Shown in pieces: positions 6,027-46,643 of a stretch of DNA of 64,000 bases (positions within the stretch are counted from its first letter, which is position 1; each line of letters begins with the position of its first letter). The position numbers were made by a program, and so were the translations under genes. Origin of the DNA: an uncultured delta proteobacterium (GTDB lineage: Bacteria > Desulfobacterota > Binatia > Binatales > Binataceae). The stretch is from contig CAVRVY010000003.1 of the NCBI GenBank assembly GCA_963724765.1, positions 64,001 through 128,000 of the forward strand, written 5' to 3'. The notes below the pieces were generated by a model. That model saw only the letters and a list, made by a program, of their open reading frames with translations, ran no database searches and was not told the origin of the DNA.

Positions 6027-7754
6027 TCAGTAAAGTTTTCCGCCCAGCATCGCGAGATGTTCAACAATCGGGCCCAGCGCCCAGGAAGCGAAGAAGGTCA
6101 GGGCACCGACGATAAGCACTACCGCTGCGAGCAGGATCACAAAAAGTATCCCGTTGGTAGGAAATGTGCCCGCGCTCACAGGTGCCGCCTTCTTCTCTAC
6201 AAGCGAGCCGGCGATCGCCAGCACAGGGATCATCGTGCCGAACCGTCCGAACAACATCACGGCGCCGAGCACGGCGTTATAGAACATAGTATTCGCGTTC
6301 AGGCCCGCAAACGCCGATCCGTTGTTCGCAGCGGACGAAGAAAACGCATAGAGGATTTCTGAGAAGCCATGCGGTCCGGAGTTGGCGATTGAGGACAGCG
6401 CACCTTTGTTGAGCACCGCTACCGCAGTCGGAAGCAGTATCACCGCTGCGAAAATCAGGATATAGAGCATCGCAAGTTTCATCTCGCGGGCCTGTATCTT
6501 TTTGCCCAAATATTCTGGCGTACGCCCCACCATCAGTCCCGCAATGAACACCGTCAAAACCGCCATAACGATCATGCCCGCGAGCCCGGTGCCCACGCCG
6601 CCGAATACGACTTCTCCTAAATGCAGGTTAAACAGCGGCACCAATCCGCCCAGCGGAGTGAAGCTGTCGTGCATCGCGTTTACCGAGCCATTGGAAGCAT
6701 CCGTGGTAGCGGTAGCCCAGATGGTTGAATTGACGATCCCGAAGCGCACCTCCTTGCCTTCCATATTGCCGCCGCTCTGCTGGGCGCTTGCGGTCTGATT
6801 AATGCCGATCGAAGCAAACTGCGGGTTGCCGCGCTGCTCAGCCCACGTACAGACGACTACTGCACCAAGAAAAAGCAGTCCCATGGTGCCGTATAGTGCC
6901 CATCCCTGGCGCCTGTCGCCGGCCATCTTGCCGAACGTATGTGGCAACCCGGCACCAATGGCGAAGATCGCCAGCACTTCGAGGAAGTTCGTAAGTGGTG
7001 TGGGATTCTCGAACGGATGGGCCGAGTTTGCGTTAAAGAAGCCGCCGCCATTAGTGCCGAGCTGCTTGATCGCGATCTGCGACGCCACCGGTCCTTGCGC
7101 AATCGATTGCGTCCCTTTCTCTATGGTTTTTACCGGAGTATAGGGGCTGAGGTTTTGCGGCACGCCCTGCCACACCAAAACCAGCGCAAATACGACACAG
7201 ATCGGAAGCAACACCCAGAGCGTGCTGCGCACGAGGTCGTACCAGAAGTTCCCCAGCGTCCGGCCGCCGTGTCGCACAAAACCCCGGATGACCGCGATCG
7301 CGATCGCCAGGCCCGCAGCAGCCGAAACGAAGTTGTGGAACGCGAGTCCCGCCATCTGGGTCAGGTAACTCATGGTCGATTCCCCCGAGTACGCCTGCCA
7401 GTTCGTGTTCGTCGTAAAGCTTGCCGCCGTGTTGAACGCCAGACCCGGTTCCACCCCGGCGAAACTCTGCGGATTGAGCGGTAGAAAATACTGCAAACGC
7501 TCGAGCGCGTAGAGCAGGACCATGCCGATGACGCTGAAAAACAACATCGAGACGGTGTATTCGACCCAGGTCTGCTCTGTCGCTGGCTGAACACCGCACA
7601 GCCGGTAGATCAGCCGCTCAAGCGGCAGCAGCACGGGGTCCAGAAACGTCCGCTCGCCGGCAAACACGCGCGCCATGTAGAGTCCCAGCGGCACGCTGAC
7701 CAAAGTGACGACTAGCGAAAAGAAGCCTATTTGAATGAGTGCATTACTGAACAC
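6027..7754 (-). CDS. kdpA: K+-transporting ATPase subunit A
   Basis: SFTTNTNWQAY, KQLGTNGGGF, SNGSVNAMHDS, NNGSAFAG. Confidence 0.99.
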   Translation of the reverse strand: MFSNALIQIGFFSLVVTLVSVPLGLYMARVFAGERTFLDPVLLPLERLIYRLCGVQPATEQTWVEYTVSMLFFSVIGMVLLYALERLQYFLPLNPQSFAGVEPGLAFNTAASFTTNTNWQAYSGESTMSYLTQMAGLAFHNFVSAAAGLAIAIAVIRGFVRHGGRTLGNFWYDLVRSTLWVLLPICVVFALVLVWQGVPQNLSPYTPVKTIEKGTQSIAQGPVASQIAIKQLGTNGGGFFNANSAHPFENPTPLTNFLEVLAIFAIGAGLPHTFGKMAGDRRQGWALYGTMGLLFLGAVVVCTWAEQRGNPQFASIGINQTASAQQSGGNMEGKEVRFGIVNSTIWATATTDASNGSVNAMHDSFTPLGGLVPLFNLHLGEVVFGGVGTGLAGMIVMAVLTVFIAGLMVGRTPEYLGKKIQAREMKLAMLYILIFAAVILLPTAVAVLNKGALSSIANSGPHGFSEILYAFSSSAANNGSAFAGLNANTMFYNAVLGAVMLFGRFGTMIPVLAIAGSLVEKKAAPVSAGTFPTNGILFVILLAAVVLIVGALTFFASWALGPIVEHLAMLGGKLY

Positions 7755-7770
7755 TATCGTCTCTCACGAG

Positions 7771-7863
7771 TTAGAATTTCTCTGGCCGCAGCAGCGCGTA
7801 CACCAGATAGACCGTCAGACCCACAGCCATGACAAGGCCCATTACTATTTCCCAGGGACTCAT
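7771..7863 (-). CDS. kdpF: K+-transporting ATPase subunit F (30 aa)
   Basis: Manual translation MSPWEIVMGLVMAVGLTVYLVYALLRPEKF*, with the KdpF YLxYALxxPEKF signature, directly upstream of kdpA. Confidence 0.95.
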   Translation of the reverse strand: MSPWEIVMGLVMAVGLTVYLVYALLRPEKF

Positions 7864-7943
7864 AGTTTTCCGCACCCCCGTACATAGGCAAGCGCCAGCA
7901 TAAAGAACGCCACGGTTCCGGCTAAAAATATTGCGTCCAACAT
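7860..7943 (-). CDS. 27-aa hydrophobic peptide upstream of kdpF
   Basis: MLDAIFLAGTVAFFMLALAYVRGCGKL*; stop overlaps the kdpF start (ATGA); single TM helix. Confidence 0.75.
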   Translation of the reverse strand: MLDAIFLAGTVAFFMLALAYVRGCGKL

Positions 7944-8490
7944 CTCGGATCTCTCTAGGGACACCAACGTTTAAAATTTAAGTGACTGTCATCATCCGGT
8001 GAGCATAGAACGTGCCGTATCACGATCCTTGTGAAAAAGACTAAATCTTTTTCAGCCGCGTGCCGACAATGCGGATTGCAGCAATGTCGGATGGATTCTG
8101 CATGGATACGGAAGAGCTTGGCCATCTGCCCAATCGACAAATCTCTCGTCGAGAGCAAACAGGTGCCCCATTCGCGTCAAGGCAGAACCGTGACGATACG
8201 ACTGACGGCTATGGCTATATAGAGGACTCTGCCGGGGGCATTCTCAGGAGGAGGCCGTTACCTACACATCGACGTTCGATATGCCGATCGACAATAGCCG
8301 ACAGGACGCCGAAGACTTTTGATCGATTTAAGTTTCGACGTCGTGAAACGACTGTTCGCTCTGATCACGCGGACCCTGGCCCCACCGGTTCCGTGATGCG
8401 TCATTGCGGGGCCGTTGAAGATATAATCCAGCATCAAATGAGACCGACTCGCGATTCAAGCTGCCCTCAAAACCCCGCCGGGTTGCCGTT

Positions 8491-9525
8491 ATGGTGATAT
8501 TGACCTTTGCTACGCTGGTCCTCGTCGCAGTTCTGCTCGGACCGGTTTTCGTCGAAGCGATCGAACGGAACGTCGAGGTGTTTTTCCTGCTCATTGGAGT
8601 ATTGACCGCCTGCGTGATGGGGCAATTCAACATGGCGCTCGTTTCGGCAGCCGTGAGTGAGCCGCTGGCATTCACGTTGGCAGTACTGGTCTTTGGCGCC
8701 AGTTTCCGTCTCCTGAGGGACTCTCTCGATCAACTGTTTCGTCGGGTAATCAACGTGCTGAACCCGCGGATTCTGTGCTTCTCTCTCGCTATCATACTGG
8801 GCTTCCTAGCAGCCTTCATAACTCCGGTTGTAGCGGCCCTTGTGTTTGTGGAGGCAATTTCCCTGCTTCGTTGCGACCGAGGGGTCGAAATCGCCGCTAC
8901 GGTTTTTGCATGCTTTGCGATCGGCATAGGCGCGGGCCTGACGCCTTTGGGCATGCCTGGTATTGCAGTTGTTCTCCGCTCTTTGCACGTCGACTTTTGG
9001 TATCTTGCGGATCTCCTGGGCCCGTTCATTGTCGTAGGAGTCATTCTAGCCGCGATCCCCACCTTGTTTTTGCCGTTCGCTTCCAACAAGCCGCTGGACG
9101 CAGCCGAAGAGAAAGATTCCTGGAGACTTGTCCTGTTGGTTCGCCCCGGTAAAGTGTACATTTTTATTGCCGGACTCGTCGCGCTTTCGGATGGGCTTAG
9201 ACCTTTAGTCGATGCCTACATCCATCGCCTTCCCAACGGACTACTGTTTTGGCTTAATACTATCTCTGCAGTTGTCAACAATTCGACTTTGGCGGCCGTA
9301 GAGATAGGACCGTCTCTGAGTATGAATCAGCAGCGCTCGGCGTTACTCGGCCTGCTAGTTAGCGGAGGGGCGCTTGTCACTGGTAACATACCCAATATCG
9401 TCGCCGCGAGCCGGTTGCGAATCACGACCCGCGAGTGGGCGAGGATCGGCCTTGGCACCGCGGCTGTTTTGCTGATTCTCTGTTTCGCGGTTTTGAGCTC
9501 GATGGCTTTTTTCGGTAGGTCTTGA
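8491..9525 (+). CDS. DUF1646-family membrane protein (putative cation transporter)
   Basis: About 10 TMs, ERNVEVF, GAGLTPLG, NSTLAAVE, SGGALVTGNIPNI. Confidence 0.8.
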   Translation: MVILTFATLVLVAVLLGPVFVEAIERNVEVFFLLIGVLTACVMGQFNMALVSAAVSEPLAFTLAVLVFGASFRLLRDSLDQLFRRVINVLNPRILCFSLAIILGFLAAFITPVVAALVFVEAISLLRCDRGVEIAATVFACFAIGIGAGLTPLGMPGIAVVLRSLHVDFWYLADLLGPFIVVGVILAAIPTLFLPFASNKPLDAAEEKDSWRLVLLVRPGKVYIFIAGLVALSDGLRPLVDAYIHRLPNGLLFWLNTISAVVNNSTLAAVEIGPSLSMNQQRSALLGLLVSGGALVTGNIPNIVAASRLRITTREWARIGLGTAAVLLILCFAVLSSMAFFGRS

Positions 9526-28005: not shown

Positions 28006-28782
28006 TTAGCCGGATTCTCGCGGTTGATCGTCACTGATGCGGCGCTTGCTGTGTTTGAGCCTGAAGCTGTCACCGTTCATCTCGAGGATGTGAACGTGGT
28101 GGGTAAGACGATCAAGCAGTGCGCCGGTTAAGCGCTCGGAGCCGAACACGCTGGTCCACTCATCGAACGGCAGATTGCTGGTAACGATGATCGAGCCGCG
28201 CTCGTAGCGCTGGCTGAAGACTTCGAACAGTAACTCTGCACCAGTTGGGGAGAGCGGGACGTAGCCGAGTTCATCCACGATCAGAAGCTTGTAGCCGGCG
28301 AGTTGACGTTGGAGGCGCAGCAGACGCTTCTCATCATGCGCTTCATGCAGCTCGTTGACCAAAGCGGCAGCGGTGGTGAAGCCGACCGCGAGACCCTTCT
28401 GGCAGGCGGCCAGACCTAGCCCGAGAGCCACATGAGTCTTGCCGGTGCCACTGTTGCCGACCGCGATGATGTTCTCGCGGCGCGCGATATACTCCGAGCG
28501 GGCCAGTTCCAGCACTAGCGTCTTGTTGAGCGAGGGGAGCGCTGCGAATTCGAAGCTATCGAGACTTTTGACCGCCGGGAACCTGGCTTCCTTGATTCGC
28601 CGCTCGATGGTCCGGCGTTCCCGTTCGATCATCTCCAGCTCGGCCAGGCGCAACAGGTAGCGAGGATAGTCGACATCCTCGCCGGCGCATTGGCGCGCCA
28701 ACTTGTCATACTCGCGCAAAAAGGTGGGCAATCTGAGTGTTTTCAAGTAATGGGTGAGCAGAACCTGGGGCGTATCGCTCAT
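28006..28782 (-). CDS. istB: IS21 helper ATPase
   Basis: GNSGTGKTH, LIVDELGY, TSNLPF, LDRLTHH. Confidence 0.96.
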   Translation of the reverse strand: MSDTPQVLLTHYLKTLRLPTFLREYDKLARQCAGEDVDYPRYLLRLAELEMIERERRTIERRIKEARFPAVKSLDSFEFAALPSLNKTLVLELARSEYIARRENIIAVGNSGTGKTHVALGLGLAACQKGLAVGFTTAAALVNELHEAHDEKRLLRLQRQLAGYKLLIVDELGYVPLSPTGAELLFEVFSQRYERGSIIVTSNLPFDEWTSVFGSERLTGALLDRLTHHVHILEMNGDSFRLKHSKRRISDDQPRESG

Positions 28783-30278
28783 GAACCTGCTCCCGCCATC
28801 AGGCTCAGGTAGGATCGGGCCGAGGTGGTGCTCACAGTCGCCTGTGGCAGATAGGGATAGATCTTCAGGTCGAGTCGCGGTGGGCGCCGTTCGATGCGGC
28901 ACAGCACGAGATGCTTGACCGCGTCGAAGCTAATCACTCCGCGATCGATCGCTTCTCGAACTCCTGCGACCACGTCTTCGAGACCGAACACCTCGAGCAA
29001 GCGCAGGACCTGAACGAACTCCCGCTTACCGGGCTTGCGCAGGCGCGCTTCGAGCAGCCGGCGCAGCGTTGCGAACTCTTCAGGTAGTTCCCAGCCGACC
29101 AGCGGCGCGGCCTGGTCCAGCGCGCCGATCTTCCGCTCCAGCAGGGCCAGGTAGTGCAGTGGGTTGAACACGAAGTCCTCGCGCTCGTAGGAACGAGCGT
29201 GCCGGGCGATCTCCTCGGTTGCACAGGCGATCACAACTTCGTGGACGTAACCTCGGACCAGCACCTCGCGGTGACCGTATGCGCTTGGCACTGAGTAGTC
29301 GTTGCCGCGGTAGCGCACCAGCGACAACGAGCTGACCCAGGCGGGCCTCTTTTCGCACGCATCATAGGGTGCGGGCGGCAGCGGCAGGAGAGCCTCACGG
29401 TCCTTCACCAGCCGCTCGCCGATGGTGTCATCATGACCACGTAGCCGATCCTTCAAACGACGGCGGCAGCACTCCAGCAACTGCTCATTTAGCTCAGCGA
29501 AGCTGAGTGCGCGCGGGATCGGCACCATGAAGTTGCGCCGCGCATAGCCGACCAACCCCTCGACCTTGCCCTTATCGTTACCCTTGCCCGGCCGCCCGAA
29601 GCGATCGGCGAACAGAGAGTGGGACTGCAGCTCACTGAAGACCTTGGTGCGCTTACGGGTGCCATCTCCGAGTATGCGCGCCACCGCCAGCTTGGTGTTG
29701 TCGTAGAGGATCGAACGCGGCACTCCGCCAAAGAACTCGAAGCTGACGTTGTGACCTTCGCAGAAGGCCTCGGTGCTCTCCGCCGGATAGGCCTGCACCA
29801 AACAAGCATCGCTGTGCGGCAAGTCCATCGCGAAGAAGTGGATCTTGCACTCCTCACCTGCGATTACCGCGAGCGCTTCACCGAAGTCGACTTGCGCGTG
29901 TCCAGGATCATGGTGCAGTGGCACGAACATCTCGCGCAGCCGCTGGCGATGCTCGTGTACGTAAGCCCTTACGATCGAGATCCCGCCGTCATACCCATGC
30001 TCATCGCGCAGCCGCTCGAAAATCCGTTTCGCCGTGTGCTGCTGCTTGGCTGGGCGTAACTTATCTTCTTCCAAGATCCGGTCGATAATCCCGACAAACG
30101 GATCCAGCTTGGGCCGCGCCGGCGGCCGGCTCCGTCGATAACCAGGCGGCACCGAGAACGCCAGCATCTTCGCCACCGTCCGCGGGTCGATCCCAAAGCG
30201 CCGTGCTGCTTCCCGCCGACTCAGCCCCTCCACGTAAACCGCTCGTCGAACCTGCGCGTATAGTTCCACCCGCTTCAT
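28779..30278 (-). CDS. istA: IS21 transposase
   Basis: N-terminal HTH, AQVDFG, YDN, KGKVE (DDE). Confidence 0.96.
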   Translation of the reverse strand: MKRVELYAQVRRAVYVEGLSRREAARRFGIDPRTVAKMLAFSVPPGYRRSRPPARPKLDPFVGIIDRILEEDKLRPAKQQHTAKRIFERLRDEHGYDGGISIVRAYVHEHRQRLREMFVPLHHDPGHAQVDFGEALAVIAGEECKIHFFAMDLPHSDACLVQAYPAESTEAFCEGHNVSFEFFGGVPRSILYDNTKLAVARILGDGTRKRTKVFSELQSHSLFADRFGRPGKGNDKGKVEGLVGYARRNFMVPIPRALSFAELNEQLLECCRRRLKDRLRGHDDTIGERLVKDREALLPLPPAPYDACEKRPAWVSSLSLVRYRGNDYSVPSAYGHREVLVRGYVHEVVIACATEEIARHARSYEREDFVFNPLHYLALLERKIGALDQAAPLVGWELPEEFATLRRLLEARLRKPGKREFVQVLRLLEVFGLEDVVAGVREAIDRGVISFDAVKHLVLCRIERRPPRLDLKIYPYLPQATVSTTSARSYLSLMAGAGS

Positions 30279-30394
30279 CCCTCCGCCCACCTCTGCCGTT
30301 CCACGGCAAATGGGCTATTGCTGCCGGATTTTTACTCCGGTGCAACCGGTCTATCCGGCTGCTTCAGTGAGGGATTTTCTCTCTGGCGCTCTCA

Positions 30395-30645
30395 GCCATC
30401 CACTTTGAAGAACGTTTCCTGCTAACGGACTGAATAATGCGACCAGCGTCGAACCATAATTGCACTAGCCTTCGCGCCGGCTCGCCCTCAAGGGTTCGCG
30501 CGCGGTGCGCGCCGGCTCACGCCGCCCTTGACCGCGCCCGCCGCTCCGGCTCGCGGGCAGTTATGCAGTCGCGAGGGGCGACTGCTGCGTTAAGCAGCAG
30601 CCATTCACTACTAACTGCTCACACACGAAATTCCTGACAGCTCCC
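30395..30645 (+). mobile_element. IS256-family right-end remnant
   Basis: AIHFEERFLLTD* transposase tail, then terminus ACACACGAAATTCCTGACAGCTCCC. Confidence 0.65.
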
Positions 30646-31412
30646 GAGCCGCAGTTATCACCTCGGGAGCTTGCGGTCTCCTTCGTCGACCAGCAGCGCT
30701 ACTTTGTCTCGGAATCATCGGTCTATCGGCTCCTGAAGGCGCATGACCTGACCACCAGTCCCGCCTTCATCCTGATGAAGGCGGCCGACACCTTCGCCCA
30801 TCCAACCACCGCACCCAATCAACTCTGGCAAACCGACTTTACCTACCTGCGGGTGATCGGCTGGGGCTGGTTCTATCTGTCGACCGTGCTCGATGACTTC
30901 TCGCGCTACATCCTGGCCTGGAAGCTGTGCACCACCATGACCGCCACCGATGTTTCCGACACCCTGACGATGGCCCTGCGCCGTTCGGGGTTGGAGCGCG
31001 TCCGGGTTCGGCATCGACCGCGCCTGCTGAGCGACAACGGGCCGTCCTACCTCTCCGCCCAGCTCGGTTCCTGGCTCGCGGAGCACGGCATGACGCACCC
31101 CCGCGGCAAGCCTTATCACCCGATGACCCAGGGCAAGATCGAGCGCTACTACCGCTCCATGAAGAACCAGATCCTGCTCGAGAACTACTATCTGCCTGGC
31201 CAGCTCGAACGGCGCCTGGCCGAGTTCGTCGATTACTACAACCTGCGGCGCTACCACGAAAGTCTTAACAACCTGACCCCGGCCGATGTCTACTTCGGGC
31301 GTGATCGAACCATCCTGACCCGGAGGGAAAACATCAAGCTCAAAACCATCGAGCTACGACGCCGGCTGCACCACCAGACTGCAGCCACAACTTCAACTCA
31401 GATGGGCCAAAC
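30646..31412 (+). pseudogene. IS3/IS481-type transposase 3' part (rve core), 5'-truncated
   Basis: LSPRELAV..VSESSVYRLLK, WQTDFTY, LDDFSRY, SDNG, TQGKIER. Confidence 0.88.
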
Positions 31413-31783
31413 CGCTCGGCGCTCTCCCGGGGGGAAATCGATGAAGCGAACTCTCAGAATAGGGCAAAGCGCGTCCCGGAGACTAACCTGCGAATCAAGC
31501 TCTTCGATGCCGAGGAGGAATTCATTGGCGAGTTTGAAATCAATCCTTCGGCCAAAATCCTCCCACATGTAGTGCTGTGGGGCGACCGGGTTTTCGTGCG
31601 AGCAACAAGCGGAGAGCCGGGCCCCTATTACGAAAATCCAGCCCCTGTTTACCGGATTCCGGGTCCAACTTCATCGGTCCTTCGGTTGGGGTGGTAAATC
31701 GCACATCGGCCGGTAACCCGGGCCACAGGTTCGCTACTCAAATTCCCCCAGGTGGCGTTCTATCAGCAACAGGGTGAACCGCC

Positions 31784-31900: not shown

Positions 31901-32475
31901 GCGACGATTCCGGAAAAGTACTTTTGCAAATCCGTCGGCCGATATCCTCCCCCGAGTTCGATTATCCCGATGCATCCTCCTGTTCCGTGCCGGCGGGAAG
32001 GTTATATAGAGCGATGCTAACTGGGTTGGCTGAAGGAGTCTGAGGTCGCACGCCAATGAACGTTACTTTGAAGCCGGCTCCGCAGGGGCGCAGCTTTGTA
32101 GCGCGCATTTCCCAGGTGTAAAGTCAGCGTCAAAACAAGGACGATCGCGATGGACGAAGAGGAGAAGCTTCAGACCGTGTGGCGTTTCTACAAGGCCGCT
32201 AACGATGGTGATCTTTTGGCATTGTCGAAGCTGATGACTGACGACGTGATTGGAAAGATGCCGGCGCTGGCTGAATCTTTACCCTCCGCGATGGTCTGAT
32301 TTGCCGGTTCCGAGAGTACTCGTGGGAGGCGGGAGTAGCTAAGCAATAGGACGAACTGTGAACTCATGCGGCGCTCGAGGAGCAACCGAATCGGGGATTC
32401 TTGAAGAGGTCTGCCAAATTCTAATCGCCTGCGGTGCTGTTCGTGTTCCTGCTGCTGGTTCAAAAGGAAATTTGC

Positions 32476-32865
32476 ATGAGCGGCGAGAGGGTTTTCGTTT
32501 ACCAAGTCGGTGTCGCCTTGTGGCTCGCCCGGAACACGGCGACAGGATTTAGCGTCGCTGCAGAAAGCCGCGAGGCCGCAATTGCCAATTTCAAGCGCAT
32601 CTGGGGCGGTCGCGCCGGTTTTACCTTCGTTGATGGGCCTCCTCCGCCTCCCCCGCGCCCTCGCTTCAGAACCGATGAAGCCGAAAAGCTCACGCCCGAG
32701 AAAGAGTCTGCCGCCGAGCCCCAGCTCGATCACCCATTTGCCCACGTTTTCGCTGAAGAGCTCAAGCGCTTCCATCCTGACCACAACCCGCCCGACACCA
32801 GCTGGTCGTGCGATGAAGTGGTGGCCGCATTGCTCCGGTTGCGTGAGGCGCATCGGGATGCTTAG
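32476..32865 (+). CDS. Hypothetical protein with a C-terminal HPD (J-domain-like) motif
   Basis: AAGGA RBS; poly-Pro linker; LKRFHPDHNP. Confidence 0.55.
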   Translation: MSGERVFVYQVGVALWLARNTATGFSVAAESREAAIANFKRIWGGRAGFTFVDGPPPPPPRPRFRTDEAEKLTPEKESAAEPQLDHPFAHVFAEELKRFHPDHNPPDTSWSCDEVVAALLRLREAHRDA

Positions 32866-35075: not shown

Positions 35076-36349
35076 CAGGGTGCGGAAAAATGCCGAGTAG
35101 TCATGAGTTGCTCTGTTTCCACGACTCGATATTTTCAGGGTCGAGAGGCGCGTGAGGGCCGAGTGCGTCCGCGGCTCGCAGCTTCGCGACTCTGTTCAGG
35201 TAGTGACCACCGTCAGGGTGCGCATCCGCACCAGGTTGTAGGCTGCGGCGGCGAAGGTGAACATCCAACCGACCCGAGCAACTCCGCGATGACGAGTCTT
35301 GCGCAACAAAGCAACGGTCTTGAGCCAACCGAAGGCTTCTTCGACCCGCTTGCGCCGCCACTGGCTCAGCGCGTAGCCGGGGTGGCGGCTGGTACGCCGG
35401 TCGATCGCGGTCGCCGGCTTTTGCGCCACCTGCGGCGTGACTCGGTGGTCGCGCAGCTCGCGCACAAGCTCTTTGGCGTCGTAACCCTTGTCGGCACCGA
35501 GCGTCACCCGTCCAAAGCCCGGGAGCTTTTCCACCATCGCCAGCGCGGCCTCGCGTTCGGCGCGGCCGGTCGCCTGGGTCAACCGCGTGTTCACCACCAG
35601 ACCGTTGCGATTCTCCATCAGCACATGCCCCAGATAGCAGAGCCTGGCCTCGCGGCCGCTGGCCTTCCTATACAGTCGCGCCTGCGGGTCGGTAGTCGAT
35701 TGGTGGGTTGCGTTGGAGCGCCGCTCACCGTGGAAGTCGACGCTCGGATTGCCGGGATCATCCGGCGGAGTCTGCTTGTGGTCCTTGGGCTTGAAGCTCT
35801 TGTGTCCGGCCCAGGCCTCGATCAGGGTTCCATCGACCGTGAAGTGCTCAGCCGAGAGCAGATCCTGAGCTTGCGCCTGCGCCACCACTTGTTGAAAAAA
35901 GCCTTGCGCCACTTCGCCCGCGAGCAGCCGCTCCCGGTTCTTGGTGAACACCGTGACATCCCACACCGCATCGTCCATGCTGAGTCCCACGAACCAGCGG
36001 AACAGCAGGTTATAATCAAGCTGCTCCATCAGCATGCGCTCGCTGCGCACCGTGTAGAGCACTTGCAGCAAAAGCGCGCGCAACAGCTTCTCCGGCGGGA
36101 TCGACGGCCGCCCGCTCTTGGCGTAGAGCGCATCGAAACGCGGCCCCAACTCCTTAAGCGCCGCATCGACCATCACTCGAATCGCGCGCAGCGGATGATC
36201 CGTGGGCACACGGCGTTCTGCCGAAATGTAGCTGAACATCCCGCTCTGCTCGTGGTCCGTCCCGCGCATCACCACATCCTCCTCCGACGACGGTTACCCA
36301 TTCCTCTACATGCCATCAAAAAGAAATGCGATCCTTTTTCCGCATCCTG
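35076..36349 (-). mobile_element. IS5-family element, complete, TTAG target duplication
   Basis: IRs CAGGGTGCGGAAAAA / TTTTTCCGCATCCTG, flanked by TTAG at 35072-35075 and 36350-36353. Confidence 0.95.
35196..36275 (-). CDS. IS5-family transposase
   Basis: GRPSIPPEKLLRA, VDGTLIEAWA, GADKGYD, RKRVEEAFGW. Confidence 0.96.
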   Translation of the reverse strand: MVMRGTDHEQSGMFSYISAERRVPTDHPLRAIRVMVDAALKELGPRFDALYAKSGRPSIPPEKLLRALLLQVLYTVRSERMLMEQLDYNLLFRWFVGLSMDDAVWDVTVFTKNRERLLAGEVAQGFFQQVVAQAQAQDLLSAEHFTVDGTLIEAWAGHKSFKPKDHKQTPPDDPGNPSVDFHGERRSNATHQSTTDPQARLYRKASGREARLCYLGHVLMENRNGLVVNTRLTQATGRAEREAALAMVEKLPGFGRVTLGADKGYDAKELVRELRDHRVTPQVAQKPATAIDRRTSRHPGYALSQWRRKRVEEAFGWLKTVALLRKTRHRGVARVGWMFTFAAAAYNLVRMRTLTVVTT

Positions 36350-36416
36350 TTAGGTCATTTGGGGAATGTCGGTTCAAAGCATTGACGCTGGGGTTGCAGA
36401 AGCGAAACATGGCATA

Positions 36417-37460: not shown

Positions 37461-38080
37461 CTATCTCCTTGCCGCAAAATGCGGACCGAAAAAAGGAAGC
37501 CCTGGCCCTCGCGCGAGACGTGCTCCGGGGAACGAAGTACGAAGAGGATTGACGGAGCGCCTTCAGGCGGAAGCTGAATCGCGAGGCCAACAAGGATCAG
37601 ATGAAATCCGAGCTCGCGTTTCCGCCCGATCAGTGTCAGGAAACCACAAATCTTCTTGAAGAGTTTGCCGACAAGCTCGAGGCCTCATGCGGTTTTCGCG
37701 GCAACGCGTCTGAACGTTAGCTTAGGTCCGATACGCAGCTATTGAGCGGCGGAACGACAAAGAGCGAGGGTCATTCCCAATTTCCTTTCTTCTCCAATTC
37801 CGACAGGGCGTCTTGGTAGATCTTCATCAGGTCGTCCGCGGCCGGCTCCGATTCGGCCATCTCAGGATTCTTCTTGTGCTCGGCCTGCGCCCTAACCCGC
37901 TCCTGATAGTAACGCAAGATTCCCGGCGTACGGTCGGCGAAGGCGGAGCGACGATCCTCGGCTGAAGGGCAATTAAAAATGACTGACCCCGAGCGTGCTG
38001 TCGAAGAACTGCGCTTTGGTGAGACAAAGTGGCTGGGCTGACCTTTCTGTCGCAACGGCATTGCCCTTTGCATTTCGCGT

Positions 38081-41017
38081 CTAGCGCAAAAGATCTCTAT
38101 AATCTGACACACCGCGTTTTCCTAGTTCATTGATAAGTCTAGTCGCTGTTTGCGCTGCCTCTCCTCCTTTACTCATAGCGCTAGATAGGACGGCTCTCAC
38201 GGGCTCGCGATTCAAGAACACGTGTAGAGTCTCTTCCTTCGCCTGCGCCAACCGTTCGAGGCATCGAATCGCCTCATCCGGAAATGCTGCACAGACTTCA
38301 GCTAGCCGCTCAAGTATGCCGTACGAGAATCGGTCTAGTGCTCTTGTGTCAAGCGCCGCAAGGGCAAGGGCCTCCTCAAGCTGACTTATAGCCCACGTAT
38401 CATCGAATACTGCAGAACGGAACCACTCGACGAAGGAAGCCATCTCCCTAGAATATTGAATTTTGCTTTCGGAACTTCTTGCCTCGGCCAAGCGGCATTC
38501 CCAAAGTCTTGTCAGTCTGGCGAGTAACTCTGCGTCGGGAGGTCGATCTGTTTTTTTCGATTCGAAAAGCCAGCGTCCAATGGCTTCTAGAGCGTATGCC
38601 CTAGCCTCCACCGGAGCGTGGGCGAAAAATCCAACGAGCAAAGGATCGTCAAGATGCAGCTTGCCTCGCCAATACATTCCCATCAAGTGTGCTGCAAGAT
38701 TTCCCTTGAGGTCGGCGCCTCTGGCTTTTAGTCGGGCGGGCTTTCCCAAACGCTCAATAGCAAGGGCGTACTGCGGGCGTAGCGTCAGAAACACGTCATC
38801 ATACGCTGGGCAAAAAGCCAGATATGTACTCCACGCAGCCTCCCAATAAAGCCAGGTGTTCGGGTCGTCCGGGAAAATCCTGCGAGCGTTGTCGGCGACC
38901 CATTTGGAATCAATCTGATGGAGCCATGGAAACCACCTGCCATAGATTGATCGAATAGATAGTGACGGCTCCAAATCGAGCGCTAGGTGCTTATCGAGCA
39001 CATCTCGTACCTCTGGCATTTCGACAAAGGTTGGGGTAGCGCCGCCGGTCTTTGCCTTTTCGAGAGAGTTACGCACCCAAATTGCGTAGTGGACGATTGC
39101 ATGCATAGCGACGCCACGTGTCGCATTTATAGAGATCTCAGAAGGCGCGCTATTACTTTCTAACTGTCGTGCTTCGCGATCAGGTTTTGGATCAGGATCA
39201 TCGGAAAGAGGGCCAAGGAGTCTCCAGACATCGTCTCGCAACTCAAACGGAATCTTACCTTTGTCTCCGGACATTGCCACCTCAAGAAGGTATGCAATGG
39301 CGTTCCTGGTCCAAGTCCAATCGCGATCCTCTTCTACCCAATATGGGACCTCGTTCAGTACATCCGCATCCGCTTGGCTCAGAATCCATGAACAGAGATC
39401 TAGCACGGGTTTCCATTCAAACGCCCGCCCTTTGCCGATCGCATCACGAAGGCCGTGCAACAGCGACCGCACATAAGTTGGGTGGCAAACGCTGAATGCT
39501 TGAGCGTGTCTCGCGAACCTTTCGGGATCGTCAGCGATCACAGATGTTAATTCACGTCCGAGCCCCTCTCGCGAGTCTCCCATAAAATCCCGAGACGGCT
39601 TCCAATCTCGTAAGTATGAGACGAGCGTCTCGACCGGCATTTCGCGGATGTCTTCCGGCTTAACGGGGCTGGACGGACCAACGAACTGCTGAACATAATG
39701 AGGAAACTCGATGTGCTTCTCGGCTGGAAATTCCTGAGCGAGCTTCTCGTAAAGCGCCTTCATAGAAGCAGGTACGCGCGCTTCAAACCAACTCAGACGA
39801 ATGAATTGCCATCGACGCTGCTCTTGCGCTGCTTGCTCGTCGGTCATTTTTTTGTCGAACGGCCAGTTTTTATGCGACTGTGCCCAACTCTCGTAGTTTG
39901 CCTTGAAGTACTCCGGTGGCGGCGGCTTGGCGATCCAATCTAAAATCATTTCTTGCCGATCGCCTGTTAGTCGAGCGAAGTATTGCCGCAAAACCAGCAC
40001 GTACTCGTGCCGGTAGTGTAGGTCATCAAATAGTTCCCGCTGCGTGAGAAATCGGGCCGCTATGGTCAGTGAGTCAGGTCCATCCAGGAAGACATTCAGG
40101 GCGTACAGAGCAACTCGCGTGAAGATGCTCCAAGCTGGCCGTCTCGCTTCCAAAGCTTCGATGACGCTCGGCAGCATCCCCACATCGGTTCGAATTATTT
40201 GTGTGGCAGCGTCGCGGACAGCGCTTACGAGCAGCGATTTTATTAGCGGTAACTGATTTTGCTCATGGTCTTCTACGGCGGGGTGCCAGATATACGACAA
40301 GTCCTCGGAACCTTCGTTCCGGGGTTGCCGGTGCGAAAGTTTAATGGCTTGGTCAAGTAGGTTGCAGAGTAAACTGAGGACGTCGGTACCGGCATTCGCG
40401 ACAAGCTCAGGGATATTCTTCTTAAGGATCTGTTCGTAATGCCAAAGGTCGAATCGAGCCCGAGGCTCTGGGAGTATGGGAAGCTCCGAATCGTCAGATC
40501 GTGGATCTGGTACCACCGCAAGAAGCGCTTGCGCTAGCCTCAATGCTTCCTTTGTTTTTCCACCACGTGCCAGATGGGCGGCTAAGGCACCAAACCTTTC
40601 GGCCAAGAATGTTAGTTGATAGGCTGGTTGCGTCCAATTGATAGCTACTTCGATCAAATCGGCAGCGACATCGGCAGGCATCGCGAGTGCTGCCTGAACG
40701 AGGTTCTCGTACACAAGAGGATTACCGTTTGCCGGTATTCTCTTTATGATCTCTTTGACGAGATCGGGTTTATGACCCGCCATGCGGGCAAGATATTGCG
40801 ATTCAGGCCATGGCGGAAATTGGACGGTCCCCTGCGACTCATCACGTATGACATCTGGCGGTTTAGTGAAAAGCTTCGCCTTCCAGAGAGGCTCAACCCA
40901 CTCCGGATTCTCTAGCCGATCGAAGAAGTAGCGGTAGTGAGCCTGCCGCGCGAGCTGTAGCGTGGCTTTCGCTACTTGCTCAGGAGTTGGCTTCTTCCAG
41001 GATTTTGTCGAGTTCAT
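38081..41017 (-). CDS. Large (about 978 aa) helical protein, defence-island type
   Basis: ATG 41017, MNSTKSWKKPTPEQV..YFFDRLENPEW..WPESQYLARMA..SINATRG; lower GC than the flanks. Confidence 0.8.
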   Translation of the reverse strand: MNSTKSWKKPTPEQVAKATLQLARQAHYRYFFDRLENPEWVEPLWKAKLFTKPPDVIRDESQGTVQFPPWPESQYLARMAGHKPDLVKEIIKRIPANGNPLVYENLVQAALAMPADVAADLIEVAINWTQPAYQLTFLAERFGALAAHLARGGKTKEALRLAQALLAVVPDPRSDDSELPILPEPRARFDLWHYEQILKKNIPELVANAGTDVLSLLCNLLDQAIKLSHRQPRNEGSEDLSYIWHPAVEDHEQNQLPLIKSLLVSAVRDAATQIIRTDVGMLPSVIEALEARRPAWSIFTRVALYALNVFLDGPDSLTIAARFLTQRELFDDLHYRHEYVLVLRQYFARLTGDRQEMILDWIAKPPPPEYFKANYESWAQSHKNWPFDKKMTDEQAAQEQRRWQFIRLSWFEARVPASMKALYEKLAQEFPAEKHIEFPHYVQQFVGPSSPVKPEDIREMPVETLVSYLRDWKPSRDFMGDSREGLGRELTSVIADDPERFARHAQAFSVCHPTYVRSLLHGLRDAIGKGRAFEWKPVLDLCSWILSQADADVLNEVPYWVEEDRDWTWTRNAIAYLLEVAMSGDKGKIPFELRDDVWRLLGPLSDDPDPKPDREARQLESNSAPSEISINATRGVAMHAIVHYAIWVRNSLEKAKTGGATPTFVEMPEVRDVLDKHLALDLEPSLSIRSIYGRWFPWLHQIDSKWVADNARRIFPDDPNTWLYWEAAWSTYLAFCPAYDDVFLTLRPQYALAIERLGKPARLKARGADLKGNLAAHLMGMYWRGKLHLDDPLLVGFFAHAPVEARAYALEAIGRWLFESKKTDRPPDAELLARLTRLWECRLAEARSSESKIQYSREMASFVEWFRSAVFDDTWAISQLEEALALAALDTRALDRFSYGILERLAEVCAAFPDEAIRCLERLAQAKEETLHVFLNREPVRAVLSSAMSKGGEAAQTATRLINELGKRGVSDYRDLLR

Positions 41018-41702
41018 CTGTAGTTTTGAAAAACTCTCGGAAGAAAGCGCCCAGCGCTGCCTCAAGACGTTCAAGGCAGCCCTTGACCATGTCCTCATCC
41101 GATGTCGAGTCGTCGGACGGCGGAGAAGGCCGATTTGATATATCAGACCCGGTCGCCGGAACATGCGCCCTGCCCACCGCCAGACGTCCTATTGCCCTCC
41201 ATTCCCTTCTCAAAAATGCAAAGCGAGCCTCAGCTGCCGGGTCGTCTGGTTCAATCATTTCAAACAGGCGATCCCATCTCCTATCATTGGCGTCGCGGCC
41301 CTCCGCATGAGTTCTGACAAGGACTCCCATCTTTAAGTACACGGATCGCGGCAATTTTACATCGGTGATCTTTGGGTTGCTTCCACTCTCCGGATCGGGT
41401 GGAAGCGTACCGTCCGATGGCAAACCATGTTTTCGCCAATCGTTTTCGATCTTATCGCAGAGATCCTGATACTGAATGTGAGCGGCCCGTGGGGCTCCCA
41501 TGGCGTCCGGCAGCCGATTTACAATTTCACGAATCGCATGCGCCACGAAGCGCACCTTACCGGGGAAGTGTGCCTCGGAGAGAATTCTTAAGGCTCCCTC
41601 GTACAGCTCCGCCAAATCAGATGCATGTCGACGGAGCGAATCCGCCACTTCCCTACGCAAGGGAGGCAAATCGTCGGTGACCTCGGCTGGGGGCGATTCC
41701 AT
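40980..41702 (-). CDS. 240-aa hypothetical protein, possible HEPN-like domain, overlapping the next gene
   Basis: LYEGAL...FVAHAIREIVNRLP...GRAH; 38-nt overlap with the downstream ORF. Confidence 0.75.
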   Translation of the reverse strand: MESPPAEVTDDLPPLRREVADSLRRHASDLAELYEGALRILSEAHFPGKVRFVAHAIREIVNRLPDAMGAPRAAHIQYQDLCDKIENDWRKHGLPSDGTLPPDPESGSNPKITDVKLPRSVYLKMGVLVRTHAEGRDANDRRWDRLFEMIEPDDPAAEARFAFLRREWRAIGRLAVGRAHVPATGSDISNRPSPPSDDSTSDEDMVKGCLERLEAALGAFFREFFKTTDELDKILEEANS

Positions 41703-42396: not shown

Positions 42397-42524
42397 ACCA
42401 GCGTTTTAGACTGTAGAGAACGGCGGTGGTGGTATCCTCGGCGAGCGCGTACGCCAGTTTGATACTGCTATTTGAGGGGGTCGGTCTGATCAGGGCGCAC
42501 ACGTCACTCAATCGAGGCCGCACG

Positions 42525-44315
42525 ATGACCAGACGCGTCGCTGTAGTACTCTGGTGTGGGGTTCTGCTTGGCGCTCTGATCGCGTCCACATTCTCGCAAG
42601 CGGCCGCGAAGGTAAACGAAAAATCCGAAGCCACGAATCGCCTTCTGACACTCGTCGCGGCGCAATTCCCGAATCTGACGGAGGCAGAGCGAGCGTTGCT
42701 CGTATTCGTCGACCTCAAGAAACGCGCTCAAGGCGACTTCGCGCTCGCCGGCCCCAGCGCAGCCGCCAGTGATATGAGCAACGATCCCGTGCATGCCGAT
42801 CAATGGAACCACGAGCGAGATGTTCGCGCCGAGTTGATTCGATGGCTGTCCGTCGACCTCGATGCTTCACGGCTGGTCGACCCACGCGGCATCCGTCTGC
42901 TCGGCGCGAGAGTCACGGGCCGACTCGATCTCTCACGGGTTCACGTCCCCTTCCCGATCGTTTTGCGCAACTGTGCGGTACCGGAGCGCATTAGTTTCGC
43001 GGCGACCAGTATTCTTTTCCTCGACTTAGGGGGCAGCCATATCGGCGAAATGGACGCCCCCGGGATCGAGGTTGATAGCGACCTCCGGCTCGACTCCGGG
43101 TTTCAGGCCGCGGGCGAAGTCAACGTCGCCGAAGCGCGAATCGGCGGCGCATTGCTCACCTCGGGCCGCTTCAAGAGCTCAGCCATCGATTTAGATTTGT
43201 TCGATCCGAAAAACACGCAGAGGCGAGCATTTTACGGGCTGCAGATGCGCGTGGGGGGCAGCCTGGTTTTCCGCCATGTACATATCGACGGCGGCATCGA
43301 GCTCAGCGGCTCCACTATTGGCGCAGACCTCATCCTCGATGGAAGTTTTGTTAATCCCGGAATGATGGCGATCGACGCTTCCAGCACCGATATTGCCGGG
43401 AACGTCATTATCGGCTACGGGGTGCCCTTCGTATCAGATGGTTTGGTGAATTTTGTCACGGCGAGGATCGGCACGGACTTCTTTGTGGCACAGGGGATAT
43501 TTTCAGGCGCGGCCCGCGAACGCCATGGGCTCGACGCATCCGGAATTTCTGTGAAGAACGCGCTGGTGTGGACCAATGTAGCACTGCCCAATGGCGGCTT
43601 TCTGAATTTGACCGGGGCCAGCGCCGAGGCGCTGATCGACGACGAACAAAGCTGGCCCGCGCCGGGTAGCCTCCTCATCGATGGTTTCACCTACACCGGA
43701 TTTTCCCAAATCGGCCCAATCAACGCCGCCGGCGATGCCGGCACGCGGCTGCGCTGGTTGCGGCTCCAGTCAGGGTTTCATTCGCAGCCCTACCGTCAAC
43801 TCGCCAAGATCTTGCGCGAAAGCGGCGACGAGCCGGGCGCGACTGAAGTGCTGATCGCCAGCGATGACTTAAACTACCGTCGTTTCGGTCTGTCCGGGCG
43901 GATCTGGGGTGCATTTCTGAACACGACCATCGGTTACGGGTATCAGCCGCTGCGCGCCATGGTGTGGTCATTTGCAGTCGTGATCTTCGGATCCTTGGTC
44001 GTAGCGACAGGCAAACGCGCGGGCGTGATGCGTTTTAGGTGGCCAGAGGACACACCGCCACCGCCTGGAGATCCAGCGGCGGGACTTCATCCAATGCTCT
44101 ACTCGCTTGACGTGTTTGTGCCGTTCGTAAATCTTCATCAGGAGAACTACTGGTGGCCTGATGAGACAGCGTCGGGCGAGTGCGCGATCTTCGGCCAGAG
44201 GGTGCCGGTTCGCGGCTCAGTGCTGCGCTACTATCTATGGCTACAAATCGTCGCTGGTTGGCTGCTGAGCGCGATCTTCATCGCTGGAGTGACCGGTTTA
44301 GTCAGGAGCGACTAG
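42525..44315 (+). CDS. Membrane-associated beta-solenoid protein ('membrane-associated oxidoreductase'-like hypothetical)
   Basis: Signal peptide, repeated A.I.G.L.L motifs, QPYRQLA..LR..G, GYGYQPLRA, YSLDVFVP, C-terminal TM. Confidence 0.75.
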   Translation: MTRRVAVVLWCGVLLGALIASTFSQAAAKVNEKSEATNRLLTLVAAQFPNLTEAERALLVFVDLKKRAQGDFALAGPSAAASDMSNDPVHADQWNHERDVRAELIRWLSVDLDASRLVDPRGIRLLGARVTGRLDLSRVHVPFPIVLRNCAVPERISFAATSILFLDLGGSHIGEMDAPGIEVDSDLRLDSGFQAAGEVNVAEARIGGALLTSGRFKSSAIDLDLFDPKNTQRRAFYGLQMRVGGSLVFRHVHIDGGIELSGSTIGADLILDGSFVNPGMMAIDASSTDIAGNVIIGYGVPFVSDGLVNFVTARIGTDFFVAQGIFSGAARERHGLDASGISVKNALVWTNVALPNGGFLNLTGASAEALIDDEQSWPAPGSLLIDGFTYTGFSQIGPINAAGDAGTRLRWLRLQSGFHSQPYRQLAKILRESGDEPGATEVLIASDDLNYRRFGLSGRIWGAFLNTTIGYGYQPLRAMVWSFAVVIFGSLVVATGKRAGVMRFRWPEDTPPPPGDPAAGLHPMLYSLDVFVPFVNLHQENYWWPDETASGECAIFGQRVPVRGSVLRYYLWLQIVAGWLLSAIFIAGVTGLVRSD

Positions 44316-44512: not shown

Positions 44513-45106
<594 letters not shown>

Positions 45107-45602: not shown

Positions 45603-46643
45603 GTGAAGGTTAAAACACTCGGCATCGACCTGGCAAAGGAGACGTTCGGACTGCACGGAGTAGACGCCCTTGGGCGAATGGTGGTGCACCAGCGGGTCAC
45701 GCGCAAGCACCTGCGGGGTTTTCTGGTGAAGCTGGAGCCGTGCCTGGTGGGGCTGGAAGCGTGCGGCTCGGCGCACTATTGGGCGCGAGAGATCGAGAAG
45801 CTGGGTCACACGGTTAAGCTGATGAGCCCGCAGTTCGTCATCCCCTACCGCAAGGGCAATAAGAATGACCCCAACGACGCCGAGGCGATCTGCGAGGCGG
45901 TAACCAGGCCGTCGATGCGCTTCGTACCGATCAAGCACGAAGAGCAACAGGATTTACAGGCGCTCCATCGGGTGCGCGAGCAGTTAGTCAAGAACCGCAC
46001 CGCACTGGCTAATCAGATTAGAGGGCTATTGCGTGAGCGCGGAGTAGTAGTGGCACAAGCGATCGCGCGGCTGCGCGCTGCCTTGCCGCTGATCCTGGAG
46101 GACCAGAGCAATCGCCTGAGTGGGCTGCTGCGCGAGCTTTTGGGCGAGATGGCCGAGCGGCTGCGGATGCTCGACGATCGTCTGCGGCAGTACGACCAGC
46201 GGATCGCGCACGTTTGCCAGCAGGACGAACGGTGCCGGCGGCTGGTTAAAGTCGAAGGCGTCGGTCCGCTGGTGGCGACGGCTGTGGTCGCGGCGATAGG
46301 TAATGCGCGGCAGTTCACCAACGGCCGCGAGCTCAGCGCCTGGCTGGGGCTGGTGCCGCGCGAGCACTCAAGCGGCCAGCGCACGATGTTGCTCGGCATC
46401 AGCAAGCGCGGCAATCGTTACCTGCGCACGCTGCTCATCCACGGGGCACGAGCTGCCACCCGCGTGGCTGAGCGCAAACGCGACCCGCGTAGTATCTGGC
46501 TGAGCCGGCTTAAGCTCAGAGGCGGGCCCAACGTGGCGGCGGTAGCCCTGGCCAACAAGAACGCGCGAGTGATGTGGGCACTGCTCGCTCGCGGCGACTC
46601 CTATCGGGTGCGGCCAGCGATGGACCGAGCGGCCGCGGCCTGA
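45603..46643 (+). CDS. IS110-family DEDD recombinase/transposase
   Basis: GIDLAK, EAC, KNDPNDAEAI, GLVPREHSSG, SKRGNRYLR. Confidence 0.97.
   Translation: MKVKTLGIDLAKETFGLHGVDALGRMVVHQRVTRKHLRGFLVKLEPCLVGLEACGSAHYWAREIEKLGHTVKLMSPQFVIPYRKGNKNDPNDAEAICEAVTRPSMRFVPIKHEEQQDLQALHRVREQLVKNRTALANQIRGLLRERGVVVAQAIARLRAALPLILEDQSNRLSGLLRELLGEMAERLRMLDDRLRQYDQRIAHVCQQDERCRRLVKVEGVGPLVATAVVAAIGNARQFTNGRELSAWLGLVPREHSSGQRTMLLGISKRGNRYLRTLLIHGARAATRVAERKRDPRSIWLSRLKLRGGPNVAAVALANKNARVMWALLARGDSYRVRPAMDRAAAA

Follow-up and report, generated by a model that had tools for sequence, protein, structure and literature searches.

A predicted Dsr1-like sensor and a small helical effector candidate encoded by two genes that overlap in two reading frames

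The window analysed here is a stretch of 64,000 nucleotides (nt) from an uncultured member of the Binatia (assembly GCA_963724765.1, contig CAVRVY010000003.1, positions 64,001 to 128,000), and it carries on its minus strand two genes with overlapping ends, the shared part being read in two frames. The small, upstream gene, P0001 (40980..41702), is an open reading frame (ORF) of 240 amino acids (aa) whose product is an all-helical effector candidate with a distant relation to pP_pnuc_1. The large gene, P0003 (38081..41017), is an ORF of 978 aa, predicted to encode a helical sensor body of the Dsr1/Avs7 type without a SIR2 domain. The small gene ends in frame 0 as ...DELDKILEEANS-TGA, its peptide running to ...TDELDKILEEANS before the final TCC TGA; the +1 frame of the same string is that of P0003, reads MNSTKSWKKPTPEQV... 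and stays open for 978 aa down to 38081. A previous, sequence-only reading of this DNA had described one frame closing at a TGA and an open +1 frame behind it, and this is confirmed: when the 40-nt junction string was searched in the window, a single occurrence was found, on the minus strand at 40979-41018, and none of 100 shuffles contains the string.

In the window, the dual-frame region extends over 38 nt (40980..41017); it opens with the ATG of the large gene and closes with the small gene's stop. This ATG (41015..41017) is formed within GAT-GAA, the codons of Asp229-Glu230 in the small gene, and is shifted 9 nt upstream compared with the position usual in the family; the resulting MNST(K/R)SWKK start of the large protein is also present in the relatives P0005 and L110. 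An ORF listing gives a longer form of the large gene, of 1027 aa with an ATG at 41164, but the conserved N-terminus of homologues begins M..SWKKPTPEQV, which favours the 978-aa form. The small gene closes with TCC as its final sense codon and TGA as its stop (40980..40985), the site at which a programmed +1 frameshift had been proposed, with a fusion of about 1200 aa as its product; a hypothetical shift at TCC-TGA-G would give 240 + 966 = 1206 aa, in agreement with that length.

The junction is bridged, with 0 differences and 0 gaps, by contigs of two public metagenome runs belonging to different studies (record 2 of X1, covering 40787-41087, and record 8 of X5, covering 40892-41088). The sequence is therefore real and the junction is not an assembly error. 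P0003 is present as a single copy in its own genome, a 4-contig assembly with a contamination of 5.16%.

A protein search with P0003 retrieved 442 relatives, and the lengths of 122 of these fall mainly into two classes. Proteins of 950-975 aa (82/122) mostly have the N-terminus M[KR]SWK[KT]PTPEQV, and proteins of 1125-1150 aa (18/122) are true fusions, carrying a domain homologous to the small protein at their N-terminus. Junction DNA was then taken from 80 genome loci and from 80 metagenome loci, the latter collected with search patterns that excluded the junction itself. Among the metagenome loci, 28 are +1 splits, in which the upstream stop lies 55 nt before the YFFDR motif; 20 fusions, 12 other splits and 1 other arrangement were also found, while the motif-based classifier left 16 of the 80 unclassified and 2 more are truncated. 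A dedicated search for the arrangement of the window gave 54 loci; over a junction segment of 156 nt, the sole basis of deduplication, 46 are unique. According to record titles, they belong to NC10, Acidobacteriota, Chloroflexota, Planctomycetota, Cyanobacteriota, Bacillota, Binatia and others. The suggestion, in the sequence-only reading, that homologues keep this overlap is thus borne out.

Per-column counts and entropies, together with the 46 unique loci, delimit a near-invariant block of 29 nt (40980..41008), whose consensus in the +1 frame is ATG AAA TCC TGG AAG AAG CCA ACT CCT GA; in the window, ACA replaces the ATG. Whole proteins share 32-47% identity, whereas these approximately 29 nt are nearly identical from phylum to phylum. 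Contigs from other organisms, present in three metagenome runs, align with the window solely at 40980-41013 (34 nt, 3 differences) and have unrelated flanks.

The large gene has a start codon of its own in all 46 unique loci (ATG in 45, TTG in 1). This start is an ATG located 26 nt ahead of the stop in 43 of them; of the other three, the window and L110 have an ATG situated 9 nt before that position, and L074 has a TTG situated 3 nt before it. The usual ATG is provided by the codon of an invariant residue of the small protein, Asp232 (41007..41009), which is GAC in the window and GAT, forming the +1-frame ATG, in 43/46 loci. From the Asp codon usage of each locus, 25.3 GAT would be expected (Poisson-binomial P 2.5e-9; this and our other statistics assume independent loci, though the loci are homologous), and in fused relatives of about 1130 aa the homologous Asp is encoded by GAT in 10/19. 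The +1-frame ATG is therefore under selection, as judged from the GAT excess. A Shine-Dalgarno-like GGAG, GAGG or AGGA is found 5-16 nt before the ATG in 25 of the 43 loci, compared with 9.6% of 9379 windows taken in the same phase from upstream ORFs.

The wobble positions of 20 unique genome-derived junctions indicate how far the constraint extends. In frame 0, wobble entropy drops from 1.69 upstream to 0.44 within the overlap; in the +1 frame, it is 0.41 within the overlap as compared with 1.53 downstream, and the limits of the frozen block are exactly the ATG and the stop. The commonest change tolerated, CTG/TTG in one frame and TCC/TCT in the other, is synonymous in both, and the +1-frame Trp codon is TGG in 19/20 junctions, the exception being TAC. 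Both frames are thus under purifying selection within the overlap, and the +1 frame is constrained from the ATG onwards, ahead of the proposed shift site. Were TCC-TGA the only entry into this frame, no constraint would be expected upstream of it, and constraint is seen there. The block is near-invariant at the nucleotide level across phyla because both frames encode conserved peptide motifs.

These observations have to be weighed against the two explanations in which the junction belongs to a single gene. In a programmed +1 ribosomal frameshift at TCC-TGA-G, some ribosomes would slip and make the fusion of about 1206 aa besides the separate proteins. UCC-UGA is the shift site of antizyme and CUU-UGA that of prfB, and TCC-TGA is the commonest ending of the small gene (TCC in 31/46 loci, TGA in 43/46). 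A +1 shift anywhere in the overlap would moreover give a product of the same length as the natural fusions, and these (...ILEEATPEQV in P0085, ...ILEEPTPEQV in L001) resemble the predicted transframe product (...ILEEANSEQV), so that fused proteins are functional in relatives. The site itself is nevertheless variable: the last codon is other than TCC in 15/46 loci (GCC in 5, GCT in 2, and TCG, CGC, AGT, ACC, AGA, ACA, AAC and GGT in 1 each), 3 loci have TAG or TAA as their stop, in 4 the stop is displaced downstream by 3 codons, and the base that follows it is G in 17, A in 14, T in 8 and C in 7. What conservation TCC-TGA does have can be attributed to coding, because PTPE in the +1 frame together with ANS in frame 0 would produce the same letters; the purine-rich GGAAGAAG located 5 nt before TCC would likewise be wholly explained by coding. 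RNAalifold on the 20 junctions, from -60 to +83, reveals no conserved structure (-1.27 kcal/mol, 3 pairs, 0 covarying). In every locus the frame of the large gene has a start of its own, constraint on this frame is already present ahead of TCC-TGA, and related subfamilies have an ATGA-type coupling. Transcriptional slippage was considered too and rejected, as the junction has no homopolymer longer than A4. The programmed frameshift is therefore not supported; we consider it improbable, and at most the source of a minor side product.

A fused gene of about 1200 aa that has been broken by a 1-nt insertion, or only appears so through a sequencing error, would agree with the single-nucleotide indels that distinguish fused from split relatives, and the assembly, with its 4 contigs and 5.16% contamination, could be suspected of such an error. 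The same split however recurs in 54 loci, both of its frames showing purifying selection, the metagenome contigs of two studies cross the junction without a difference, and a selected ATG and a Shine-Dalgarno-like motif exist. This makes a broken gene highly improbable. Nor are all homologues simple fusions, the outcome by which the sequence-only reading would have been refuted, since split and fused ones coexist.

The other subfamilies of the pair show how the same two genes can be joined differently. Their junctions are ATGA, GTGA, an 8-nt ATGCCTAA overlap, or a Shine-Dalgarno motif followed by a short gap. In the ATGA form of Acidimicrobiia, ...EANSR is followed by MSAWTPP..., consecutively and without long overlap; as both motifs are present there in succession, W-x-x-P-[TS] belongs to the real N-terminus of the large protein. 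In a rough tree of the sensors, fusions lie beside split sisters (L029/L001, L012/L033, L041/L053, L078/L079 and L073/L071). This FastTree tree, which is midpoint-rooted, shows no support values and holds 58 of 81 sequences (23 being lost to the trimming pattern), was used for close sister pairs only, and the pairs were then examined at the DNA level. L001 is one base short within GAAGAAGCC relative to L029, L079 is one base longer than L078 at the junction, and the 1-nt indels that create fusions fall at different positions of the junction. A fused protein is thus viable, and its repeated origin is an argument for the two products acting as one unit. A 24-nt tandem duplication (...NANSDLVEEANPDLVEKA...) is visible in the junction of the fused L053 (about 3990-4060); duplications do occur there.

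The large protein had been read as a large helical sensor, and a profile match agrees with this. P0003 matches the PADLOC Dsr1 model PDLC04166 with E 5e-45 over model positions 500-1119 of 1227, and its relatives match the same model with E down to 2.5e-62, from position 292 or 306 approximately to 1216, which amounts to about 900 residues. In these relatives the alignment starts at the gene boundary and corresponds to everything that follows the SIR2 domain in Dsr1. The score against the NCBIfam Dsr1 equivalog is 30.3 bits for a cutoff of 1400; no SIR2 domain is matched in P0001 or P0003 with Pfam, PADLOC or NCBIfam, and a profile of the sensor alignment A1 gives no match to the sequences of solved structures. 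By homology, the large protein would thus be a helical sensor body of the Dsr1/Avs7 type. Two variants of the sensor were observed. L003:3021-3947 is a split form of Dsr1 proper, in which 125 nt separate the end of a 309-aa SIR2 ORF from the motif region of the homologous sensor, whose N-terminus includes the linker helix. In three Actinomycetota loci (L027:2012-4072, L036:449-2482 and L068:2003-4063), the frame of the Dsr1-like sensor is open about 680-707 aa further upstream, and this region contains a thioredoxin DsbH/DUF255 domain (E down to 1e-45), which is unusual at the N-terminus of a defence sensor.

In an alignment of 47 sequences (A2), which includes partners of all subfamilies, the small protein has three invariant residues, R58, H180 and D232, and six nearly invariant ones, Y34, H55, E59, W89, W168 and E214, with H55 and E59 kept in at least 90% of the 47. 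H55, R58 and E59 form an H55-x2-R58-E59 motif (AHAIREI, 41526..41540), and the codon of His180 is at 41163..41165. The AlphaFold2 model of P0001 is made entirely of helices, with a predicted local distance difference test (pLDDT) value of 86.7. In an exhaustive VIA search, many HEPN proteins are matched at Z 5.7-7.5 (2hsb 7.5, 5yep 7.3, RnlA 6.9, LsoA 6.9; also 1wwp, 7ae2, 1ufb, 1jog, 1wol, Las1 and AbiA) and the top match of any kind has Z 8.3, values that lie within the range, under about 13, which the tool gives as common for helical bundles. The HEPN signature is R-x4-6-H, and no such pair of columns is evident in alignment A2, where H55-x2-R58-E59 and a separate H180 are found instead. 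The only recurrent Pfam match is PF18165 (pP_pnuc_1), reached by 10 of the 47 partners at E <= 0.05 with a best value of 3.5e-5, and 21 of 30 feature matches in the ESM Atlas are pP_pnuc_1 clusters. PADLOC and NCBIfam give nothing useful on the small protein; a literature search by the names pP_pnuc_1 and 'pPIWI-associating nuclease' found no paper. The matches of the A2 profile to the sequences of solved structures, endoglucanase Z (E 0.005) and liprin (E 0.11), are at chance level and were discarded. Of the HEPN-like effector named in the sequence-only reading, the helical effector candidate is retained and its HEPN identity is only possible; 'HEPN-like nuclease' is thus a lead rather than a result. 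In L009:2878-4005, L020:2875-4002 and L024:2794-4002, the partners are longer (376-403 aa) and consist of an N-terminal DUF4062 and a pP_pnuc_1-like helical domain; they end ...GNS-TGA, or with other codons before CCTGA, and have a +1 overlap of their own.

Residues 202-240 of the small protein (...FFKTTDELDKILEEANS; 40983..41099) make up its C-terminal helix, a candidate tether to the sensor. In the AlphaFold2 model it spans residues 202-239. The counterpart of this last helix (FFKTTDELDKILEEA), a homologous helix of the FFDL..ID.LL type, is found at the N-terminus of the large protein in the SIR2-associated clade (L003, L013, P0066 and P0078), and in fused relatives a helix of this type is continuous with the sensor. 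Because its counterpart sits at the N-terminus of the sensor in that clade, the small protein is probably tethered to the sensor by this helix. When the small protein is co-folded with residues 1-740 of its large partner, the score is 0.39, the best of 3 controls reaching 0.00, with runs that agree in at least 32% of contacts and a partner pLDDT of at least 61. This support is weak: the co-folding mark is reached by 116 of 157 solved complexes and by 2 of 215 mismatched pairs, and at scores of 0.60 or less by only 18 of the 157 complexes, plus both of these mismatched pairs.

The genomic context was examined in 22 genome-derived loci, 17 of which have at least one flanking ORF with a PADLOC match at E <= 1e-5, a count made without background control and which includes generic helicase, methylase and TniQ models. 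The flanking matches comprise type I restriction-modification (RM) genes, a type IV restriction endonuclease with PD-Lambda-1, DpdF, HEC-05, and pAgo with a TIR-like protein; the pair is preceded by an HsdS-like gene in 7 loci and HsdR-like genes flank 3 loci. A subclade is found inside or beside a type I RM operon, with the HsdS-like gene upstream and the HsdR-like gene downstream or upstream (L029:2105-3343 and 7473-8927, L011:36-2240), and an RM-associated pair is also present in L084, L086, L087, L088, L139 and L152.

Around the pair of the window, the flanks contain mobile-element genes (28779-31572, 44522-45106 and 45603-46643). On one side these encode a protein with a Mu-transposase C-terminal domain and an rve integrase; the products encoded in the opposite flank are an IS21 IstB ATPase and an IS110-family transposase. 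Four neighbouring ORFs (42426-44315, 35103-36353, 32188-32853 and 37771-38112) have no PADLOC, Pfam or NCBIfam match. One of them, 42426-44315 on the plus strand, is a 629-aa ORF that is divergent from the pair and immediately precedes IstB; a diverged IstA-like transposase is one possibility among others for its product. A consensus scan for promoters and terminators between 37700 and 42500 gives counts at or under those of shuffles. A search of 30 relatives, including 16 of the same genus, did not find the large gene.

Another reading accepts the overlap as real and takes the pair for some other two-subunit complex, merely sharing a helical repeat scaffold with Dsr1 and having no anti-phage role. 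The flanks of the window, made of insertion-sequence and housekeeping-like genes without a PADLOC match, would suit it, and so would the N-terminal thioredoxin/DUF255 module of the Actinomycetota relatives, which is no obvious defence effector. Against it stand the extent of the Dsr1 match in relatives, the existence of the SIR2-bearing split relative L003, the defence or RM neighbours in 17/22 loci with pairs lying beside type I RM genes, and the patchy distribution, with none found in 30 relatives. In addition, according to the January 2026 preprint PMC12803255, this sensor family is combined with many effectors, a HEPN-like RNase among them. A function outside defence is thus unlikely, and the role of anti-phage defence pair, as it had been proposed from the sequence, is supported by homology and context.

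The results are best accounted for, with a probability of about 0.78, by two separate, presumably co-transcribed genes with overlapping, dual-frame ends rather than by one frameshifted gene, and the products of the two would form a sensor-effector unit. The small gene would end at its TGA and the large gene would start at an ATG within the last 10-13 codons of the small gene, ribosomes starting at this internal ATG either independently or by coupling of termination with reinitiation. Both products may then form one unit, in which the small all-helical effector candidate would take the place that SIR2 has in Dsr1. If the pair works as Dsr1 and Avs7 do, a phage protein might bind the sensor, the activity of the effector would be released and the infection would be stopped, as an abortive infection.

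Several points weigh against this reading. The ATG of the window itself, at 41017, has no Shine-Dalgarno-like motif ahead of it, and the window's own neighbours have no PADLOC match. The effector assignment of the small protein is weak: Foldseek finds no match of the P0001 model in the PDB at E <= 0.001, and the Pfam gathering score of PF18165 (26.3 bits) is reached neither by P0001 (14.4 bits) nor by the best of the 47 partners (23.9). To these should be added the homology between the loci used for statistics, the uncontrolled count of defence neighbours and the low Z values of the HEPN matches, given above.

The origin of the overlap invites speculation. The W-x-x-P-T motif at the N-terminus of the sensor may have been born by overprinting on the ...ILEEANS tail of the effector, and a 28-nt tandem duplication may afterwards have 'unrolled' it into the non-overlapping ATGA form of Acidimicrobiia, which is proposed because it is the only simple path we see that keeps both peptide motifs. 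The 29-nt block could be an ancient, frozen coupling device that fixes the effector:sensor ratio, with a few ribosomes shifting frame inside it to give a third, fused product comparable to the natural fusions. Taken together, we regard this scenario as improbable.

More generally, a sense codon followed by TGA, with an open +1 frame behind it, is insufficient to call a programmed frameshift, and an attractive reading is corrected here. What remains of most interest is the frozen 29-nt dual-coded block, an unusually clean bacterial gene overlap with conserved peptide motifs in both frames, and the uncharacterised helical effector candidate with its invariant Arg, His and Asp. The widespread two-gene form of the Dsr1/Avs7-sensor family provides a concrete pair in which anti-phage activity, trigger and enzymatic activity can be tested. 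The repeated changes from split to fused by single-base indels are moreover a natural experiment on whether the effector must be covalently tied to the sensor.

The pair can finally be compared with known systems. Like the prfB (RF2) and antizyme genes, it has a sense codon followed by UGA and a downstream ORF in the +1 frame; it differs from them in that the site varies, the downstream start is selected, no conserved stimulator was found and the relatives are two-gene operons or fusions. The small protein resembles pP_pnuc_1 (PF18165, 'predicted pPIWI-associating nuclease'), its only recurrent Pfam match and that of 21/30 Atlas matches, although no partner reaches the gathering score. Its model is a helical bundle, with many HEPN entries among the VIA matches at Z values common for such bundles, and its conserved motif is H-x2-R-E with a distant His and Asp rather than an evident R-x4-6-H.

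With stop-start coupled pairs of the ATGA or TGATG type (PMC6728339, PMC10666635, PMC12548453), it has in common two genes on the same strand, a downstream start inside the upstream gene and products that probably belong to one complex, and sister subfamilies show ATGA, GTGA and 8-nt overlaps; the overlap is here of 29 nt in the family, and 38 nt in the window, rather than of 1-8 nt. According to PMC12803255, phage major capsid proteins are recognised by a sensor common to Avs7 and Dsr1, the major capsid protein being the trigger in the cases tested, and in non-STAND proteins this sensor is joined to NADases, nucleases and kinases, among which is a HEPN-like RNase. Split proteins are handled there through an analysis of adjacent sequences, and the text of that preprint that was searched mentions no overlap or frameshift. 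In architecture there is a likeness with Dsr1 (PMC12803255; Garb et al., preprint 10.1101/2021.12.14.472415): the pair of the window has the same effector-then-sensor order and a matching sensor body, but is carried by two polypeptides, with an uncharacterised helical domain as the effector candidate in place of SIR2.

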